Source of the DNA: Armatimonadota bacterium
Lineage (GTDB): Bacteria; Armatimonadota; Fimbriimonadia; Fimbriimonadales; GBS-DC
NCBI GenBank assembly: GCA_037445735.1
Contig: JBBIJY010000014.1
Coordinates: 5,175-69,174, forward strand
Reading direction: 5' to 3'
Length of the DNA stretch: 64,000 bases
Every line of letters starts with the position of its first letter. The first letter of the stretch is position 1. Under the pieces are notes generated by a model. It was given only the letters and a program-made list of their open reading frames with translations, was not told the DNA's origin and made no database searches. The position numbers and the translations under genes are program-made. Shown piece by piece: positions 1,302-51,510 of the stretch.

Positions 1302-3011
1302 GTGGAGCCGATTATTGAGCGGTATGCGCCGCGCTTTGTGGTGTTGAGCGGTGTGTCGGTGCTGATCGTGCTGATGGCGTGGCTGGGCATCGGGCTGCGG
1401 CTGGTGGAGCGACGCCAGCATCCCAACCCGCTCAGCCAGACCACCGAAGGCTATTTGCGCGCGTGCCAGTACCAGCTGGTGGCGTGGCGGTCGTGGAGCG
1501 CGGCGACTCTCAGGGAGGCGGCACAGCTCAATCGCCCTGTCGCCGTCGATATGGGCGCGTTCTGGTCCGGGCAGTGCGCCCGACTGGGGCAGGAGCTGTA
1601 TCAGGATTCGGGCATTGCCGATATTCTGAAGCGCGAGTTTGTGCCTGTGAAGCTCGATTCGGACGCCTCGCCCAAACGCGCCCGCACGCTGCGTATGGTC
1701 GCCGAGGTTCTCAATCTCCCCTATCGGCAGCCGTTGCTGGTGCTTTTCACGCCCGACGGCAAGCCGTTCGCGGCGGCGACTCCAGAGACCCGCGCCGAGC
1801 TGACACGCCTGCTGGAGCAGGTGAGCCTCGCCTATCGGAACGCGCCGAACGAGGTGCAGGCAACTGCGCAACGGCTGGAGCAGGCGTTGCTCGCCCGCTA
1901 TGTGCGCGCGGCGACGCCCGCGCCGCTCACTCTCCAGACCGCGCATGCGCTGAACGCCCAGCTGCTTGATACCCTGCTGAAAAACGAGCCAGCCGACTGG
2001 AGCCAGCCGCAACCTTACTGGCTGAATCAGACCGAGTGGCTGTTGAGCCTGGCGGAGGGGGGCGACCCGCATGCGCGCGCGATGCTGCTCAAGCGCCTGC
2101 GCTCGCTCCAGCAAAGCCCGCTCTGGGACGGGCAGCGGGGTGGCTTTCACACGCTGCTGGAGGGGCTGAACGCGGAGGGTCAGCCGCTGGGCGGCAAGCG
2201 CCTGACGGAGAACGCACGCCTGTTGAGCCTGTACGCGCGTGCCAGCCGATTCGCGCCCGATTTGCGCCTGACGGCAGATCGGTTGCTCGATTTTCTGCGC
2301 CATCAGCTCTATCAGGAGCGTCCGCCGGGCTTCCGCGCCAGTGTGGCGCCGTCCCGGCGCGCTTCACCGGTTGGTCAATCGCTGCCCGTCCCCGAAGTCG
2401 ACACCACACTCTATGCGGACGGCAACGCGCTGACGGTTCTCGCCCTGCTGGACTATTCGAGCGTCGCGCCGCCCGATTCGGAGCCGTCGGGCTGGGCACA
2501 AGCGACTGCCCCGCGCGTGCTGGAGACTCTGCGCGGGTTGCGCACGGTTCAGGGCGACCTCTATCACTCCTCGCGCCGTCAGGTCTCCGACTGGTTGCCC
2601 GATCTGGCGCTGGTGGCGCGGGCGGCGAGCCGATTGTATCAGGCACAGCGTTCCGAGCGTGCCCTGCAGTTTGCCCGCCAGCTGCTCACGCTCATCGAAA
2701 CCCGCTATCATGACCCGACAGGTGGCTACTATGATATTTCGGAGGGCAAGCGCTGGGCGAGCTGGACGCTGATACCGACGCGCGTCTCGGAAGATGGTGA
2801 GCTGCCCGCCGATAACGTGCTGGTCGCGCTGGCGCAGGTTGAGTTTGCGCGTGCGCTTCAGCAGCGCGGGCTGCCCGGTGACGATGCTGATGCCCGCCTC
2901 TATCTTCAGCGTGCCCGTCAAACGGTGCAGGTGATGCTGGGCGATCGCGCCAGCATCCCCGAACGCTTCACGGGCTGCGCCATCGCCATCAGCGCGCTTC
3001 AGGTATTCTAA
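1302..3011 (+). CDS. Thioredoxin-domain protein, YyaL/SSP411 (DUF255)-like, with N-terminal TM helix
   Basis: NPLSQTTEGYL..QLVAWRSW..EAAQLNRPV; FVPVKLD; LWDGQRGGF; KRLTENARL; D...GGYYD. Confidence 0.75.
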   Translation: MEPIIERYAPRFVVLSGVSVLIVLMAWLGIGLRLVERRQHPNPLSQTTEGYLRACQYQLVAWRSWSAATLREAAQLNRPVAVDMGAFWSGQCARLGQELYQDSGIADILKREFVPVKLDSDASPKRARTLRMVAEVLNLPYRQPLLVLFTPDGKPFAAATPETRAELTRLLEQVSLAYRNAPNEVQATAQRLEQALLARYVRAATPAPLTLQTAHALNAQLLDTLLKNEPADWSQPQPYWLNQTEWLLSLAEGGDPHARAMLLKRLRSLQQSPLWDGQRGGFHTLLEGLNAEGQPLGGKRLTENARLLSLYARASRFAPDLRLTADRLLDFLRHQLYQERPPGFRASVAPSRRASPVGQSLPVPEVDTTLYADGNALTVLALLDYSSVAPPDSEPSGWAQATAPRVLETLRGLRTVQGDLYHSSRRQVSDWLPDLALVARAASRLYQAQRSERALQFARQLLTLIETRYHDPTGGYYDISEGKRWASWTLIPTRVSEDGELPADNVLVALAQVEFARALQQRGLPGDDADARLYLQRARQTVQVMLGDRASIPERFTGCAIAISALQVF

Positions 3012-3038
3012 GGGTCATCTGAGTTTTGAGGAGAAGCG

Positions 3039-3863
3039 ATGGAGATTGTGATACTTGGCACGGCAGCAGCGGAGGGGATACCTGCGCTCGGCTGCGACTG
3101 CAGGGTGTGCCACACGGCACGCGAGCGCGGCGGCAAAAACATCCGCTCACGCTCCGGCGCACTCATCGACCATACGCTCAAAATCGACTTCGGTCCCGAC
3201 ACGCTCTATCACATTCATCGTGAACGGCTGAACCCGACCGACTGGCGATGGCTGGTCTTCACTCACTCGCACCATGACCACTGCGCAGGTGAGGAGCTGC
3301 AATATCTTTTGCCGGGCTTCGCGCCGCCCGAAACGGCTCGCAACCTGAACATCTTCGGCAACGCGGCGGTCAAAGCGAAGGTGGAAGGCGTCGTCAGTTA
3401 TACGGGGCTGCGCCTCGAGTGCAACCTCATTCGTGCCTTCGAAACCTGTGCGCTGGGTGAATATACGCTCACTCCTATTCGCGCCACGCACTTCACGGAG
3501 GTGCCTGACGAGGAGGTGCTGAATCTGGTTATCGAGCGCAACGGGCGGCGTCTGCTCTACGCCTGCGATACGGGCTGGTACCCGCCTGAAACATGGGATT
3601 TCCTGACGGGCGTCGCGCTCGATCTGGCGATTCTGGAGTGCAGTTTCGGCTTCCTGCCCAGCGACTATAGCGGGCATCTCGATATTGAGAAGTGCGTCCA
3701 GATGGTGAACGAGTTGCGCAAGCAGGGCACGCTCCGAGCCGATTCGCGCGTGGTGCTGACCCACTTCTCCCATAACGGTGGCGCGCTGCACGAGGAGCTG
3801 GAGGCGCGCGCCACGCCATACGGCATCGAGATCGGCTGGGATGGCATGCGTATCGACCTGTAG
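3039..3863 (+). CDS. MBL-fold metallohydrolase (PhnP-like)
   Basis: LGTAAAEGIP.GCDCRVC; THSHHDH; DTG; THFSH. Confidence 0.85.
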   Translation: MEIVILGTAAAEGIPALGCDCRVCHTARERGGKNIRSRSGALIDHTLKIDFGPDTLYHIHRERLNPTDWRWLVFTHSHHDHCAGEELQYLLPGFAPPETARNLNIFGNAAVKAKVEGVVSYTGLRLECNLIRAFETCALGEYTLTPIRATHFTEVPDEEVLNLVIERNGRRLLYACDTGWYPPETWDFLTGVALDLAILECSFGFLPSDYSGHLDIEKCVQMVNELRKQGTLRADSRVVLTHFSHNGGALHEELEARATPYGIEIGWDGMRIDL

Positions 3864-3922
3864 CGTGGCGGTACATGTGCGCGGCTCTACCGTCTAATGA
3901 AGATGGAGGCGATAATCGATCG

Positions 3923-4831
3923 ATGATGAAGCCAATCTGTACCGAATGGGAAGAGCGATTGAGTTTGTATGTGGACGGTCTGCTGAACCCGTTTGACGAG
4001 AACGCGGTGGAGGCACATCTATCGCGTTGTGAGGCGTGTCGTCAGGCGGTGGCGTTGTGGCGTGAAGTGGGTCAGACGGTTCGTCGCCTGCCGCGCGTGC
4101 TGCCGCCGCCCGATTTGCGGGCGCGCATCCTTGTCAGTACCACGCGCAAGCCCGGTCTTCTCCAGCGTCTGCGGCTGGGCTGGTGGTCGCTCGCGCCTGC
4201 GGTCGCGGCAGGGCTGATGCTGGCGTGGTGGACACTGCCCCGCACGCCCGTGCAGCCGGTGCCCGCCTCACATTCGTCGTGGGAAGTGCCCTCAGGGGGT
4301 CCTGCAGAGGCGATGAATGAGTCTCCCTCGGAGCCGCCCGCGCACATGGAGGTCGCGCGTCGCCCCGCTGATAGGGACACACCCATCGTGATTGTGGTGC
4401 AGCCGGCGTCGGCGCCGCGCTGGCAGGCAGCCCAACCGCGCTGGGTCGCTGCCCCGCGCGCGCCTGCCCCGCAATCGAACTCACCCGCTAACGGCGAACC
4501 TATCGCGCTCGCGACCCCGCGGGACACCACGCCCGTTAACAGCAACGCGCCCGCGCTCGTCACCGCGATTGCTGATCTGCCAGTGGAGACGCCTGCGCCC
4601 AGCGAGCCTGACACAGCGGGTTCCCAGGAACCCACCACGCCCGGCTCAGAGAAGACCCCGCACACTGCTCAGCCGGCTGTCGGCGCCACACCGGGCGCCC
4701 TCAGCCAGTGGTCGGAACAGTTCAATCGCCAGCTGCAGCGCGAAAACCGCCTTCTGCGTCAGCAGGCTCTATCGCGCCGACAGCGCGACTCGCGCTTCTT
4801 TGTGCCCATTCTTTCGTGGAATATTAAGTAG
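3923..4831 (+). CDS. zf-HC2 anti-sigma-factor-like membrane protein
   Basis: LSLYVDGLL...VEAHLSRCEAC (HxxxCxxC), one TM segment, Pro-rich tail. Start chosen at the ATG after GGAGG. Confidence 0.75.
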   Translation: MMKPICTEWEERLSLYVDGLLNPFDENAVEAHLSRCEACRQAVALWREVGQTVRRLPRVLPPPDLRARILVSTTRKPGLLQRLRLGWWSLAPAVAAGLMLAWWTLPRTPVQPVPASHSSWEVPSGGPAEAMNESPSEPPAHMEVARRPADRDTPIVIVVQPASAPRWQAAQPRWVAAPRAPAPQSNSPANGEPIALATPRDTTPVNSNAPALVTAIADLPVETPAPSEPDTAGSQEPTTPGSEKTPHTAQPAVGATPGALSQWSEQFNRQLQRENRLLRQQALSRRQRDSRFFVPILSWNIK

Positions 4832-46811: not shown

Positions 46812-47228
46812 TCAACCCTGCACACAGCGCAGGTGAACCCAGCCGCGGTTGGCATCGCGGGTGATGGGTTCGCCGACGGCAATCGTCTGGCGGCAGATGC
46901 GGCAGAAGCCCTCATAGCGGGCGGGGATACTGTGCTGAACGGGAGCGTTCATGCAGTCCACATGCACCCAGCGCCCACTTCGAGCGTGGCGCGTGATCAG
47001 CGCACCCTGTTGAATCGGTTGCAGGCAGGCGGGGCAGGTGCCCTCATAGCGAGCAAAGAGCAGCGGTGCACCCGCTTCCAGCAACTGCTCGTGTTGCTCC
47101 GTCAACAGGGCGAGCAGCTCACTGGCAAGGAGATCGATCTCTATAACCGACTCGTTCGATACGCGCGGAGGCGACTGATCTGGTTTGCCCTGCTCGACCC
47201 AGCGGCGATTTTCCGGGATTGGCTTCAT
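46812..47228 (-). CDS. Tandem CxxC-x20-HxxC zinc-finger protein
   Basis: ARYEGTCPAC..I..G..I..WVHVDC and ARYEGFCRIC..I..GEPI..WVHLRC; ATGA overlap with the upstream gene. Confidence 0.75.
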   Translation of the reverse strand: MKPIPENRRWVEQGKPDQSPPRVSNESVIEIDLLASELLALLTEQHEQLLEAGAPLLFARYEGTCPACLQPIQQGALITRHARSGRWVHVDCMNAPVQHSIPARYEGFCRICRQTIAVGEPITRDANRGWVHLRCVQG

Positions 47229-48712
47229 GCGGGACTCTCCTCCGTGTCGGGGGATGGCGCTTCGCTTCGGGGTCGTGGTGCGGGCGGCGCCTTCTGGCGG
47301 GGCGGCTTCAGGTAGCCACTGATGCCGTCCAGCCCGGTTGCCAGCAGGCTACCCGCCTCGCAGGAGCAGAGGAAGCAGCTCGGATTGCGTTCGGCTTCGG
47401 CGGGGAACGCCTGCTGCGCCACCAGGTCGTAATAGACATACGGCTGCGCGGGCAGGCAGCCCGTGGTCAGCTTCACGAACTCCCACACCAGCAGGTTCGC
47501 CACGACGCCGTTCAGGAACACCACCTGCGGGTTGGGTATCCGCTCGCCCTGAATGTAGCCGTGCTGGATCGACATGGCACGCTGTTCGGGCGTGAGCTGC
47601 TCTTCCACGCTCTGGCGCACCAGATGCCCGACACAGCTGAGGCAGGCGGTCTCGCCCGGCAGGATGAGCTGCACCTGTCCGCCGCCCTGCGCGATGCGTC
47701 CCGCCTCCGCGCGTATGCCGACGCCCGCGTCCAGATAGGGGATCAGCGCGCACACCGCCACCAGGTTCAAATACTGGCGCACGGTCGCGCTGTCCACCGC
47801 GCCGATCAGCACATCGCTTTCGAGCAGGGTGGTCAGCAGTTCGGGCGAGCGCGCATCGGCGGGCAGGGGCATGATGGTGCGCCATTCGGGGCTGCGAGCA
47901 CGATTGAACCAGAGTGCGAGCGCCTTCACCTTGCGCCAGCGCCGAATCGCGCGATACCAGGTGGCGCCCACGATACGGTTCAGATTGCTCAGCTCCAGTC
48001 GGTCGGGGTCGATCAGCGTCAGATGCCCGACGCCGAGCAGGGTGAGCGCCTGCGCAATCTGGGAGCCAAGCCCGCCCGCGCCCACAATCGCCACGCGCAG
48101 GTGGCTCAACAGCGCCTGACCCTCCACACCGAGCGCGCGCACCTGACGGTCGTACAGCTCCCGCTGGGCTTTGTCCAGCTCCGGCGGTGCAAGGTCAGTC
48201 GCATAGCGCATCTCGCAGGGCAGCCCCACGATGCGGATATGCTCAATCGGCACCACCTGCTGATTCACATAGTCCCACATGTGCCCGTCGAAGCCCATGT
48301 CGGAGCCGAACACCAGCGTGCCATGCCGAAACGGGGGCGACAGCACCTCGGTGACGCGGAACTTCTGATAGTCGCTCTGGTGATCAATCGAGGAGAAGCG
48401 CGGTTGAGGCGTCCACGGATGGGAGTGGGCTTCCAGCAGCGACCAGCCCTCCGCTTCACAGCGCGTCAGCAGGGCATGCACGAACTCCGGGCGGGTGATG
48501 ACGCGACTGGCGGAGCGCTCCTCGTAGGCGTCCGGCGGCACCTCCACCAGCTCGCGCACAAGGAACACCGCTCGCCCTGGCAGCTCCAGCGTGCGACACA
48601 GCATGAAGCACTTCGTCTCGACACAGCGGTCAGCGAGAAGCGCTTCGGTGAGGCGCGTCCAGAGCGTGCGCGTGATGCGTACCTCGCCACACAGAGCTTG
48701 CAACGGCTCCAC
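47225..48712 (-). CDS. JAB (JAMM) peptidase - ThiF/E1 adenylyltransferase fusion
   Basis: N-term E..HSHP..FSSID; C-term YDRQ..G..GQ..L, VGAGGLGS, DPDRLELSNLNR, AVDS, CLSC and CFLC. Confidence 0.9.
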   Translation of the reverse strand: MEPLQALCGEVRITRTLWTRLTEALLADRCVETKCFMLCRTLELPGRAVFLVRELVEVPPDAYEERSASRVITRPEFVHALLTRCEAEGWSLLEAHSHPWTPQPRFSSIDHQSDYQKFRVTEVLSPPFRHGTLVFGSDMGFDGHMWDYVNQQVVPIEHIRIVGLPCEMRYATDLAPPELDKAQRELYDRQVRALGVEGQALLSHLRVAIVGAGGLGSQIAQALTLLGVGHLTLIDPDRLELSNLNRIVGATWYRAIRRWRKVKALALWFNRARSPEWRTIMPLPADARSPELLTTLLESDVLIGAVDSATVRQYLNLVAVCALIPYLDAGVGIRAEAGRIAQGGGQVQLILPGETACLSCVGHLVRQSVEEQLTPEQRAMSIQHGYIQGERIPNPQVVFLNGVVANLLVWEFVKLTTGCLPAQPYVYYDLVAQQAFPAEAERNPSCFLCSCEAGSLLATGLDGISGYLKPPRQKAPPAPRPRSEAPSPDTEESPA

Positions 48713-48715
48713 TCC

Positions 48716-49165
48716 CTATCCGCGTCGCCAGCGTTCAAACGCCTTCTTAATGAGTTCGCAAACGCTCAGCAGGGAATGCCCTGCCAGCGGGTTCGCTGCA
48801 GGGTGCCACTCGTGGATATGCAGGCAGCAGGCGGTCCAGCCCTTCAGTGCCGGCGGCGCCTCACGGAACTGACCCCGATTGGGGTCATAGGAGGTGTCGC
48901 CGTAGAACACATGGGGCGGACGCTGCCCGTTCGCTAAGCGCAGGTTGTAATCCACATAGAACCAGTCGGGTGGGGTCTGGGGGTAGTGACGCGGCAGCAG
49001 GATCAGCACATCAGTGGTGGTGTAGTTGTAGCCACGGGGGAGCGGGAAGTCGTGAATGATGACCCACTCCCCGTCCTCGTCGTCATAGGAGGCTTGCTTC
49101 GTCTGCGAGTAGTGCGTCGCAGCGAGCGCCGCCTCGTAGGCGATCCGCTGCAGGCGTGTGTTCAT
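48716..49165 (-). CDS. Prokaryotic E2/UBC-fold protein (Prok-E2 family E-like)
   Basis: WVIIHDFPLPRGYN..TDVLILLP..YP..PPDWFY; W..CCLH..EWHP. Confidence 0.82.
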   Translation of the reverse strand: MNTRLQRIAYEAALAATHYSQTKQASYDDEDGEWVIIHDFPLPRGYNYTTTDVLILLPRHYPQTPPDWFYVDYNLRLANGQRPPHVFYGDTSYDPNRGQFREAPPALKGWTACCLHIHEWHPAANPLAGHSLLSVCELIKKAFERWRRG

Positions 49166-49195: not shown

Positions 49196-49396
49196 TTAGC
49201 CGATACCGTCCTCCCAGCGCGGCAGCTCGGTGACGGCGGGTGCGCGGCGCACCACTTCCTGCGGCGTGGTCGGCTGAGATGGAGTGATCGGCGTGTTCAG
49301 CGTGGTCGGGTCGTTCGTGGTCGCAGGCGTCAGCGTAATCTCATAGTCGATGCCGTTCAGGCGAACCTTTTCCTTAACCGCGTTACCTGTTGGCAT
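49196..49396 (-). CDS. 66-aa putative modifier / Ubl-like peptide ending ...ELPRWEDGIG
   Basis: GAGGTG RBS, TATAAT upstream (49415-49420), first gene of the E2/E1-JAB operon, C-terminal Gly. Confidence 0.7.
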   Translation of the reverse strand: MPTGNAVKEKVRLNGIDYEITLTPATTNDPTTLNTPITPSQPTTPQEVVRRAPAVTELPRWEDGIG

Positions 49397-49542
49397 ATGG
49401 AACACCTCACCCCTATTATACCCCAAACCTCTGTCAAGAGTTCCCTGCAAAGGGGAGAAAAAATCCCGTTTCGCCTCCCAGAGGCATCGATAAAGCAGGA
49501 AAAGGGTGGCTGGCTGACGAATCATCCACACTGTGAGGTGAG

Positions 49543-51510
49543 ATGATGGAGACGATGCAGACCACAACGGCGATTGAGGCGTTGTTGCAGGAGCAGCGGG
49601 TCTTCCCGCCTTCGGACGAGTTTGTGCGACAGGCGAATATCAGCGATGCGGCTATTTATGAAGAGGCGGCGCGCGACTATGAGGCGTTCTGGGCGAAGTG
49701 CGCCGAGATTCTCGACTGGTATCAGAGATGGCACACGGTGCTGGAGTGGAACCCGCCCTATGCGAAGTGGTTTATCGGCGGCAAGCTGAACGCCTGCTAC
49801 AACTGCGTGGATCGGCATGTGAAGACATGGCGGCGCAACAAAGCCGCGCTCATCTGGGAGGGCGAGCCAGGCGAGGAGCGCGTGCTGACCTACAACGACC
49901 TCTATCGCGAGGTGCAGAAGTTCGCCAATGTGCTGAAGGCGCTGGGCGTGCGCAAAGGCGACCGTGTCTGCATCTATATGCCGCTCATCCCCGAAGTGGT
50001 GATTGCGATGCTGGCGTGCGCGCGAATCGGTGCGCCCCATTCGGTGGTGTTCGGCGGGTTCAGCGCGGAGAGCCTCTCGGATCGAATCAACGACGCGCAG
50101 GCGAAGGTGCTGATCACCGCCGATGGCGGCTGGCGCCGCGGCTCGATTGTGCCGCTCAAGCGCAACGCCGATGATGCCCTGCGCAACACGCCCTCCATCG
50201 AGAAAGTGGTTGTCTATCAACGCATTGGCGGCGACTACACCGTGCCGATGCAGCAGGGGCGCGACCTCTGGTGGCACGAGCTGATGGCGAACGCACCGCT
50301 CACCTGCGCGCCAGAACCGATGGACAGCGAAGACCTGCTCTATCTGCTCTACACCTCCGGCTCCACAGGCAAGCCGAAAGGCATCATGCACACCACCGGC
50401 GGCTACCTTGTGGGCGTTGCCCTCACCACCCGATGGGTTTTCGACCTCAAGGATGAAGACATCTACTGGTGTACCGCCGATGTGGGCTGGGTCACAGGGC
50501 ACAGCTATATCGTGTACGGTCCGCTGGCGAACGGGGCGACCTGCGTGATTTACGAGGGCGCACCCGACTATCCCGACCGCGACCGATTCTGGGCGATAGT
50601 GGAGAAATATCGGGTGAACATCCTGTACACCGCGCCGACCGCCATCCGCGCCTTCATGAAGTGGGGCGAGGAGTACCCGCGCCGCCACGATCTGAGCAGC
50701 CTGCGCCTGCTGGGCACCGTCGGCGAACCTATCAACCCCGAAGCGTGGATGTGGTACCACGAGCATATCGGCGGCGGACGCTGCCCGATTGTCGACACAT
50801 GGTGGCAGACCGAGACGGGCATGATTATGATCACGCCGCTACCCGGCATCGTGGCGACCAAGCCCGGCTCCGCCACCAAGCCGTTTCCAGGGGTGTTCCC
50901 GGACATCTTCGACGAGCAGGGCAACCCGGTGCCGCCGAACAGGGGTGGCTATCTGGTGCTGACACGCCCCTGGCCGGCGATGACGCGCGGGCTGTACGGT
51001 GACCCCGAACGCTTCCAGCAAATCTACTGGAGCCGATACCCCGGCATCTATTTCACGGGCGACGGCGCCAAGCGCGATGAGGACGGCTACTTCTGGCTGC
51101 TGGGGCGCGTGGACGATGTGATCAATGTGTCAGGGCATCGCCTCAGCACGATGGAAATCGAAAGCGCGCTGGTGGATCACCCGGCAGTCGCCGAAGCCGC
51201 CGTCATCGGTAAATCGCACGAGATCAAGGGTCAGGCGGTGGCTGCCTTCGTGATTATCAAAGAGGGCTACACCGCCGATGAGCGATTACGCGAGGAACTC
51301 AAGCAGCATGTGGTGGCGAAAATCGGCGCGCTTGCCCGACCCGATGATATTATCTTCACCGCCGACCTGCCCAAAACGCGCAGTGGCAAGATTATGCGTC
51401 GCCTGCTGCGCGATGTGGCGGAAGGGCGCGCACTGGGCGACACCACCACTCTCGCAGACCCCGCCGTCGTGCAGGCGCTCAAAGAGAAATACGAGGGTCA
51501 GGAAGAGTAG
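49543..51510 (+). CDS. acsA: Acetyl-CoA synthetase
   Basis: [11 protein letters not shown]; DTWWQTETG; YFTGDG; [11 protein letters not shown]. Confidence 0.98.

Follow-up and report, generated by a model that had tools for sequence, protein, structure and literature searches.

We analysed a 64,000-nucleotide stretch of an Armatimonadota genome from the order Fimbriimonadales (contig JBBIJY010000014.1, positions 5,175 to 69,174; hereafter the window) and focused on a small gene at the head of a four-gene operon on its minus strand. The four genes share this strand, are tightly packed and follow the order tag, E2, JAB-E1 and zinc finger. The first gene (49196..49396, including the stop) encodes a protein of 66 amino acids, here called the tag. 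It is followed by genes for an E2-like protein of the Prok-E2_E / BubB family (149 amino acids, 48716..49165), a fusion of a JAB/JAMM peptidase with an E1 adenylation domain (JAB-E1; 495 amino acids, 47225..48712) and a protein with two zinc fingers (138 amino acids, 46812..47228). The tag stop lies 30 nucleotides before the E2 start in the window, and among related loci this distance ranges from a 4-nucleotide overlap to 32 nucleotides. The JAB-E1 start overlaps the E2 stop by 4 nucleotides, the ATG of the zinc-finger gene overlaps the E1 stop by 4 nucleotides (ATGA), and the cassette genes are predicted to be translationally coupled. We consider it probable that, in a Bub-like (6E-type) conjugation operon, the 66-amino-acid protein serves as precursor to a reduced ubiquitin-like modifier (Ubl).

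Translation of the minus strand at 49196-49396 gave a peptide of 66 residues, MPTGNAVKEKVRLNGIDYEITLTPATTNDPTTLNTPITPSQPTTPQEVVRRAPAVTELPRWEDGIG, followed by a stop. The peptide contains 12 Thr and 9 Pro, and its C-terminus reads WEDGIG. A previous interpretation based on the letters of the DNA (the sequence-only reading) had described a 66-residue peptide ending EDG-IG and hidden inside a longer open reading frame (ORF). The exact translation agrees with it, and the mechanical ORF list contains this frame only within a 123-amino-acid, TTG-started ORF at 49196-49567. We place the true start at the ATG at 49394-49396, because a Shine-Dalgarno sequence (gaggtg, 5 nucleotides upstream, part of the site ggtgaggtg at 49400-49409) precedes it, because the equivalent ATG behind a GGGGG/GGAGG site was the start in 20/20 related loci that were fetched, and because stops interrupt the longer upstream frame in relatives. 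Just upstream of the Shine-Dalgarno site lies a promoter-like element (TTGACA at 49432-49437, TATAAT at 49415-49420; 49400..49437 when the Shine-Dalgarno site is included). Both hexamers are perfect in the window, with a spacer of only 11 nucleotides, and at this spacing the element at 49415-49437 was not called by the sigma-70 scan. In the relatives the element reads ggaac...ggTATAAT; the sequence ggTATAAT was found 18-35 nucleotides upstream of the ATG, without mismatch in 11 of 15 loci, and 2 more loci have tattat or tatcat. The 123-amino-acid ORF was rejected as a gene: its upstream part is unconserved and lies upstream of the promoter-like element, and the TATAAT is 3' of its TTG.

All 20 fetched loci carry an ORF of 61-69 amino acids directly upstream of E2, and a small ORF occupies the same position in all 31 loci from named genome records (L021-L051); the two sets partly overlap in genomes. 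Selection was estimated by the Nei-Gojobori method from 14 loci (82 of 91 pairs usable). The median ratio of nonsynonymous to synonymous substitution rates (dN/dS) was 0.14 for the small ORF versus 0.12 for the adjoining E2 gene. The 66-amino-acid frame is a real gene under purifying selection.

Conservation within the tag is concentrated at particular positions. In an alignment of 19 sequences (A1), E9, V11, N14, E19, I20, L22, P24, T26, N28, P30, P45, E47 and P53 are invariant, and the tail L58-P59-R60-W61-E62-D63-G64 (LPRWEDG, residues 58-64, 49205..49225) is invariant in 19/19. The sequence-only reading had asked whether homologs keep the C-terminal glycine tail. They keep it without exception in A1 and with few changes farther out: W-[EQ]-D-G is retained in all 31 loci L021-L051, the divergent members P0006 and P0008 retain the tail, the outlier L051, with an E2 only 53% identical, encodes a 78-amino-acid tag with LPLWEDG, and loci with a second copy show LPIWEDG and LPNWQDG, which are the sole departures from the tail sequence inside the family. 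That reading had also named two candidate terminal glycines. Gly64 (codon 49205-49207), the proposed conjugating residue, is invariant; Gly66 is unconserved and was ruled out for this role.

The residues beyond Gly64 behave differently from the tail. In each of the loci L021-L051, Gly64 is followed by 1-4 residues whose length and identity vary freely. In the window these are Ile65-Gly66 (49199..49204), and the relatives have IG, GLR, GAH, AF, AN, AY, ATE, ATKR, TC, GC, AC, AR, APA, ASF, AH, GY, GANA, GGDA, LQA or a single C. The tag therefore combines, at the sequence level, the marks of a processed Ubl precursor: a conserved glycine, non-conserved residues after it and a JAB peptidase domain with an intact motif encoded in the same operon. 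Removal of Ile65-Gly66 by the JAB domain is proposed because variable residues after an invariant glycine are a known mark of JAB-cut Ubl precursors.

The tag family is narrow and strongly constrained. An exhaustive profile search through 1.84 billion representative proteins yielded just 9 tag clusters, all of 55-85 amino acids, and no fused or longer form among them; a word-indexed search with the tag returned one protein, 95% identical. No family was found for the tag in Pfam, NCBIfam or PADLOC, and no usable match in the ESM Atlas. Three database entries (P0007, P0009 and P0010) diverge after residues 32-44 into unrelated sequence and are probably assembly frameshifts or pseudogenes.

We then modelled the tag with AlphaFold2, using A1 as input (mean predicted local distance difference test score, pLDDT, 68.5; predicted TM-score, pTM, 0.25). 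The sole confidently ordered element in the model was a beta-hairpin at residues 7-22, VKEKVRLNGIDYEITL (49331..49378), with predicted strands 7-13 and 16-22 and a pLDDT of 89 over the block. Everything outside it was modelled as coil (pLDDT 58-69), and no ordered structure was predicted for the Pro/Thr-rich linker with its short PQEVVRRAPAVTE segment (residues 23-57, 49226..49330). The stretch from the hairpin to Gly64 is 35-44 residues long in 16/16 members, contains 5-10 Pro and has a longest Pro-free run of 7-11 residues; this number and spacing of Pro leave no room for a helix and three further beta-grasp strands. The mature length is 59-68 residues in Fimbriimonadales-type members, of which 6-12 precede the hairpin, and is 77 in L051, whose N-terminus bears a long extension. 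The view of the sequence-only reading that the peptide is too short and too Pro-rich for a full ubiquitin fold agrees with the model of the peptide alone and with the Pro spacing.

That reading had also called the tag half a beta-grasp. A beta-hairpin is indeed predicted, and its pattern, h-x-h-x-G-x-x-[FY]-x-h-x-h, agrees with that of the first hairpin in Multi_ubiq Ubls. When the profile of the short tag family (A3) was compared with that of the full Ubl family (A4), hhalign picked this register and aligned the hairpin only, KVRLNGIDYEITLT with YINIEGKEYPWEKD, at a probability of 0.38%. Since this profile comparison is not significant, homology to the beta-grasp is not established by it, and half a beta-grasp is a plausible description of the hairpin. 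The same match could be taken to mean that the tag is a compact, very divergent beta-grasp, or that it folds on binding, AlphaFold2 having failed on a shallow alignment, and that it is an ordinary single-domain Bub Ubl; the low pTM on 19 sequences would fit this as well. We regard this explanation as unlikely given the Pro content and short Pro-free runs after the hairpin in every member examined, the small mature length, and the Pfam results, in which 0/19 tag members matched a Ubl family even at E<=10. The window tag gave no match to Multi_ubiq (PF14452) at E<=1.

The product of the gene next to the tag matches Pfam PF14462 at 6.9e-14, and no family was found for it in NCBIfam or PADLOC. Among its relatives, only BubB chains of Citrobacter (9eae_C) have a solved structure; they were detected at 2e-6 by sequence and at 1.4e-9 by family profile. 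For BubB, Ye et al. describe catalysis by Ser333 with His335 and Asp299 (PMC11601596). The candidate catalytic residues of the E2 in the window are Asp67, Cys114 (adjoined by Cys113) and His116, with a CCxH motif. Asp67 aligns with BubB D299, the [C/S]-x-H motif occurs at the expected spacing, and His116 and Asp67 are invariant in the E2 family alignment (A2). The distance from Asp to Ser is 35 residues in L053 versus 34 in BubB, and 12 inserted residues lengthen this interval in the window E2. Among the Fimbriimonadales-type E2s, the position of Cys114 is Cys in 49 of the 50 loci L001-L050 (duplicates included; one was unmatched by the regular expression) and Ser in P0039, P0041, P0042, P0043 and L051-L054. 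Ser in the distant relatives and Cys here fits a nucleophile site. If the placement is right, this clade would have Cys where the characterised Bub E2s have Ser, and its E1 would keep the Bub Tyr. The Cys114 codon is at 48824-48826; the same position is also Cys in P0040 and L055, a natural Ser/Cys switch. Many E2s of one genus (L006, L007, L009, L010, L014-L017, L018 and L020) have an acidic stretch added at the C-terminus that ends in DPF and one further residue, and the window E2 does not have this extension.

In the JAB-E1 protein, an N-terminal JAB domain precedes an adenylation domain matching ThiF at 8.4e-36. The best match in the PDB by phmmer was Citrobacter BubCD (9ea4_A, 3.5e-24), covering residues 12-425 of 495. 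Residues E28, H91, H93, D104, R227 and Y370 of BubCD were mutated or named by Ye et al. (PMC11601596). After correction of a +2 offset in chain numbering, they align to E32, H96, H98, D110, R246 and Y386, respectively, and these six residues are invariant in 13/13 E1s of alignment A5. Tyr386 lies within GYIQGE, and the crossover loop opens with an invariant Cys357-x2-Cys360. These E1s carry two invariant CxxC pairs, C357/C360 and C446/C449, which BubCD lacks; they probably form the structural zinc site of ThiF/MoeB-type enzymes. Pfam detected no rhodanese domain on the E1, and NCBIfam returned only generic E1-E2, ThiF and MoeB models, all below their curated cut-offs. In one genus, the last 15 residues of the E1s in A5 (for example L025, L028, L029 and L031) contain ...KPIPxPRG[GS].

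The weak PDB matches of the E1 domain included MccB and PaaA (about 2e-5), and the operon begins with a small peptide gene. Both facts would fit a precursor of a ribosomally synthesised and post-translationally modified peptide whose C-terminus is activated by an enzyme resembling ThiF, in the manner of MccB acting on MccA or of PaaA in pantocin synthesis, with JAB as the maturation protease. We consider such a precursor very improbable. BubCD and ubiquitin-type E1s are much the strongest matches of the E1, and a UBC-fold E2 whose nucleophile motif is conserved is co-inherited. Within the four-gene cassette, whose flanks were not annotated systematically, neither a transporter nor an immunity gene was seen, and the flanking genes differ between genera.

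The distribution of the cassette was assessed in 61 related genomes, with the E2 protein encoded downstream of the tag as query. The E2 was present in 24 of 28 other genomes of the window's own family and in 0/32 genomes of four other families of the same order. The cassette order is retained, and the flanks seen in the window (acs, amidohydrolase) are common only to its closest relative. Second tag-E2 pairs without an E1, sometimes with a one- or two-finger protein, occur in L018, L020, L036, L038, L040, L041, L047, L048 and L050. In all five genomes checked that have such an E1-less pair, the JAB-E1 lies elsewhere in the genome, and in two genomes the E1 adjoins no E2. Evidently the parts are able to act in trans. 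No defence-linked regulator of the kinds described for Bub was noticed by eye, CapW and CapH/CapP not having been searched for. Our impression is that the broad occurrence in one family, together with the lack of noticed regulators, points away from a sporadic defence island.

More distant relatives bear on the origin of the tag. At the tag position, L052-L054 (labelled Omnitrophota and Planctomycetales; E2 32-46% identical) encode a protein of 81-99 amino acids whose Multi_ubiq match (5e-5 to 4e-4) falls slightly short of the cut-off, and have JAB and E1 as separate genes. We found 105 relatives of this type of Ubl, and 18 of 20 that were aligned end exactly at the glycine. L055 (labelled Hydrogenedentota) encodes a fusion of Ubl and E2 in the style of BubAB, and this fusion has a Cys-x-His motif. 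In L055, the Ubl-E2 fusion (1427-2131) and a long E1 ORF (2299-4380) have similar N-termini (...NTAMQNNA..., then a Ubl-like hairpin), a likeness that suggests a duplicated Ubl head on both enzymes. The genome of the window, which is 99.2% complete, has no Multi_ubiq-type Ubl by PF14452 or profile A4 at E<=1. Because distant relatives carry a full Ubl at the tag position, we take a full beta-grasp to be ancestral there and the short form to be derived. The tag likely arose by fission and reduction of a BubAB-type Ubl-E2 fusion, since its stop lies so close to the E2 start, from a 4-nucleotide overlap to 32 nucleotides before it.

The sequence-only reading had considered that a full Ubl in relatives would make the short gene a deletion allele. 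Distant relatives do carry the full Ubl, but the short form is kept under selection family-wide and in the outlier whose E2 is 53% identical, so that it is not a deletion allele. A related explanation is that the tag is a decaying, functionless Ubl remnant or a sulfur-carrier relic. The full Ubls at the tag position and the three frameshifted-looking database entries could be cited in its favour, but the gene has a dN/dS of 0.14, its start codon, Shine-Dalgarno sequence and promoter-like element are conserved, and its E2 partner is kept in 24/28 family genomes. A sulfur carrier is further opposed by the lack of a GG terminus and by the lack of a detected rhodanese domain on the E1. This explanation was already disfavoured, and we now find it scarcely credible.

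The gene for the zinc-finger protein follows the E1 in most E1-bearing loci. In an alignment of 15 members (A6), this protein begins with M(A)KPIPxNRRW, which is invariant; a linker of variable, often acidic sequence and two fingers of the form ARYxGxCxxC...HxxC are also seen. Its AlphaFold2 model (pLDDT 85.5) includes a helix. The best Foldseek rows were RING domains (RNF165, ZNRF1, RNF12) and PARP zinc fingers at E 0.01-0.4, none reaching E<=0.001, and VIA-align gave a best Z of 3.3, so that no clear fold match was obtained; the likeness to PARP fingers and to RING-type E3s, which are defined by a cross-braced binuclear treble-clef fold, is weak. Below the Pfam thresholds, zf-ANAPC11 scored 24.4 bits against a cut-off of 25 in 1/15 members and DUF2175 appeared in 7/15; no family was found in NCBIfam or PADLOC. 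The PIPxNRRW motif is not confined to this protein. Its back-translated DNA pattern gave 26 matches in 20 of 29 family genomes, and the reversed control gave 0. PIPxNRRW heads are also present on small membrane proteins unrelated to the zinc-finger protein, which in two relatives are borne by the operon: the fifth operon gene of L022 (6455-6976) and the gene after E1 in L051 (5895-6596). The genome of the window encodes a 96-amino-acid membrane protein of this kind outside the window (G000:C22:35767-36057; L058 768-1055), which ends in EPDEPFD and, used as a query, had a clear homolog in only 1 of 28 other family genomes. The PIPxNRRW proteins, both zinc-finger and small membrane, are the best candidates for an adaptor or target. 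The KPIPxPRG[GS] tail of the E1s resembles the PIPxNRRW head encoded directly downstream, and by analogy with UBA5, whose C-terminus carries an E2-binding peptide, it may be a docking peptide.

These motifs also bear on the possibility that the small protein is never conjugated and serves the E2 or the JAB-E1 as a pseudo-substrate or as a partner with a regulatory role, for instance an inhibitor or chaperone with its tail in the active-site groove. The real substrate would then lie elsewhere, for example in the tails or heads of the PIPxNRRW proteins. Seven invariant tail residues are more than adenylation alone would demand of a substrate, the zinc-finger protein has the loosely similar pattern [IL]-P-...-R-W-x-E at its N-terminus, the E1 tails contain KPIPxPRG, and tag-E2 pairs without an adjacent E1 exist. 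However, an invariant glycine followed by 1-4 varying residues is hard to explain for a binder and typical of processed Ubl precursors, and the gene sits exactly where the operons of relatives have full Ubls. We judge an unconjugated partner to be improbable and favour a conjugated modifier.

For the conjugated modifier, the following sequence of events is proposed. The JAB domain would first remove Ile65-Gly66 and expose Gly64. The E1 domain would then bind mainly the invariant tail and adenylate Gly64. The tag would pass to the crossover-loop Tyr386, as in BubCD, and from there to Cys114 of the E2, flanked by His116 and Asp67. Finally, the E2 would transfer the tag to an amino group of a target. 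Since seven tail residues are invariant, the data suggest that the tail is the main site of recognition and that the hairpin makes a second contact. This scheme starts from a gene that is real, selected and linked to E2, a glycine followed by a variable tail, conserved enzyme residues and a model in which no foldable beta-grasp is predicted; all the chemical steps, the order of transfer and the targets we infer by analogy.

Several points weigh against this interpretation. The Ubl identity of the tag comes without a match in Pfam, NCBIfam, PADLOC or the Atlas, and the homology of its hairpin to the beta-grasp is not significant (hhalign E=0.16). The structural model was built on 19 fairly similar sequences with a pTM of 0.25, and the tag may fold on binding or have an undetected compact fold. 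Cys114 was placed by motif and spacing only, because the HMM/profile alignment of the E2 with BubB covers residues 31-86 and ends before the catalytic region. In the E1, Cys357 or Cys360 of the crossover loop could be catalytic instead of forming half of a zinc site with Cys446 and Cys449. Lastly, the tag-E2 pairs that lie away from any E1 force the assumption of action in trans.

A bolder version of the proposal is that the tag is the first free-standing, largely non-globular modifier that owes its maturation to a JAB peptidase and its conjugation to a bona fide E1 and E2. It would consist of one hairpin and a recognition tail, would have evolved from a beta-grasp by fission and reduction, and would travel through a relay of a Tyr oxyester on the E1 and a Cys thioester on the E2. 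The pathway would be vertically inherited and of a housekeeping type in thermophilic Armatimonadota, with the PIPxNRRW zinc-finger and membrane proteins as adaptors or targets. Taken as a whole, we put this version forward tentatively and think it rather less probable than not.

To our knowledge, every free-standing modifier activated by an E1 is a beta-grasp protein, and Pup and UBact, which are disordered tags of bacteria, are attached by unrelated ligases. The present findings suggest that bacteria could run ubiquitin-type chemistry on a tag without the full ubiquitin fold. A tag made of a hairpin and a seven-residue tail and served by JAB, E1 and E2 would, if true, define the minimum that an E1/E2 cascade recognises, and would be a very small, thermostable conjugation handle. 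The exchange of Ser for Cys in the E2, with the E1 Tyr kept, would be a natural experiment on oxyester versus thioester relays. Family-wide inheritance without BubE suggests that the operon serves the cell in some way other than sporadic phage defence, and concrete candidates for the targets of Bub-type systems are to be found among the PIPxNRRW proteins.

No reduced Ubl of this kind was found in the titles and abstracts of the literature searched, where the relevant works were Bub preprints of the Corbett laboratory, without their supplementary operon tables, and the Bil preprint. Pup and UBact are known tags of similar size; they have about 60-70 amino acids, are largely non-globular when free and use a C-terminal residue for conjugation. 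They are ligated by glutamine-synthetase-like ligases through the side chain of a terminal Glu or Gln. The tag described here, unlike them, is found with E1, E2 and JAB, has a single terminal glycine and shares no sequence similarity with them. The Pup-like label given by the sequence-only reading therefore stands as an analogy in size and partial disorder, and falls for chemistry and descent; that reading had itself noted that the Pup GG[EQ] and UBact R[ST]G[EQ] termini are lacking, as the tail ...LPRWEDG-IG confirms. ThiS and MoaD, in contrast, are beta-grasp proteins that end in Gly-Gly and work without an E2, whereas the tag would end in Asp-Gly after the proposed trimming and has a co-encoded E2; Pfam gave no ThiS match on it.

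Two systems with E1 and E2 enzymes were also compared, as far as the sources cited cover them. Type II CBASS, an antiphage signalling system based on cyclic oligonucleotides, resembles the present operon in that Cap2 conjugates a substrate other than a free-standing Ubl, a cGAS-like enzyme, by E1/E2 chemistry, with the JAB peptidase Cap3 present (PMC11601596). It differs in that its substrate is a large enzyme and not a small free tag, and in that its E2 and E1 are fused. In the Bil system (BilA-D), the BilA precursor is described as having a glycine that is universally conserved, with non-conserved residues after it, and the deubiquitinase of the pathway as pre-processing the Ubl so that this glycine is exposed (10.1101/2023.09.26.559546). 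The tag shares this arrangement of glycine and variable residues, and both systems have an E1-then-E2 cascade with no dedicated E3. The Bil E1, however, has a catalytic Cys and a multidomain architecture (IAD-AAD-CYS), BilA has the beta-grasp fold, and the enzymes in the window are much closer to those of Bub.

The operons of L052-L054, with Multi_ubiq (PF14452) and Prok-E2_E, have the same order of Ubl, E2, JAB and E1 and share the residue pattern of the first hairpin. Their Ubls, unlike the tag, are full beta-grasp proteins of about 80 amino acids that mostly end at the glycine, their JAB and E1 are separate, and their E2 has Ser.

The closest comparison is with Type I Bub (6E.1 / DUF6527), whose operon is described by Ye et al. 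as BubAB, BubCD and BubE (PMC11601596). According to that work, the JAB domain of BubCD cuts BubAB right after a conserved glycine, the E1 of BubCD adenylates the Ubl and relays it through Tyr370 to Ser333 of the E2, and Bub operons tend to sit in mobile elements or defence loci (PMC11601596). The JAB-E1 in the window is homologous to BubCD and keeps its peptidase, adenylation and crossover-Tyr residues, the E2 belongs to the BubB Pfam family with its Asp and His conserved, and directly 5' of the E2 lies the tag gene, whose product has a conserved glycine where the cut would be expected. On the other hand, the tag is a separate gene, whereas BubA and BubB are fused in BubAB; it is predicted to consist of a hairpin and a Pro-rich tail, in contrast to the 1-3 beta-grasp domains of Type I; the E2 appears to have Cys114 at the position of the invariant Ser of Bub E2s; and the E1 keeps two CxxC pairs that BubCD does not have, one of them at the start of the crossover loop, which in Type I Bub contains an invariant Tyr and no Cys. 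BubE (DUF6527 / PF20137) was detected neither on the operon proteins nor in the 99.2%-complete genome at E<=1, and the PIPxNRRW zinc-finger protein occupies its position. Unlike Type I Bub, the cassette is inherited across the whole family (24/28 genomes). Four of the seven Type I features tested, namely the fused Ubl-E2, the beta-grasp Ubl, the Ser nucleophile and BubE, were not found here. The homology of the enzymes to those of Bub is clear, and we class the operon as Bub-like (6E).

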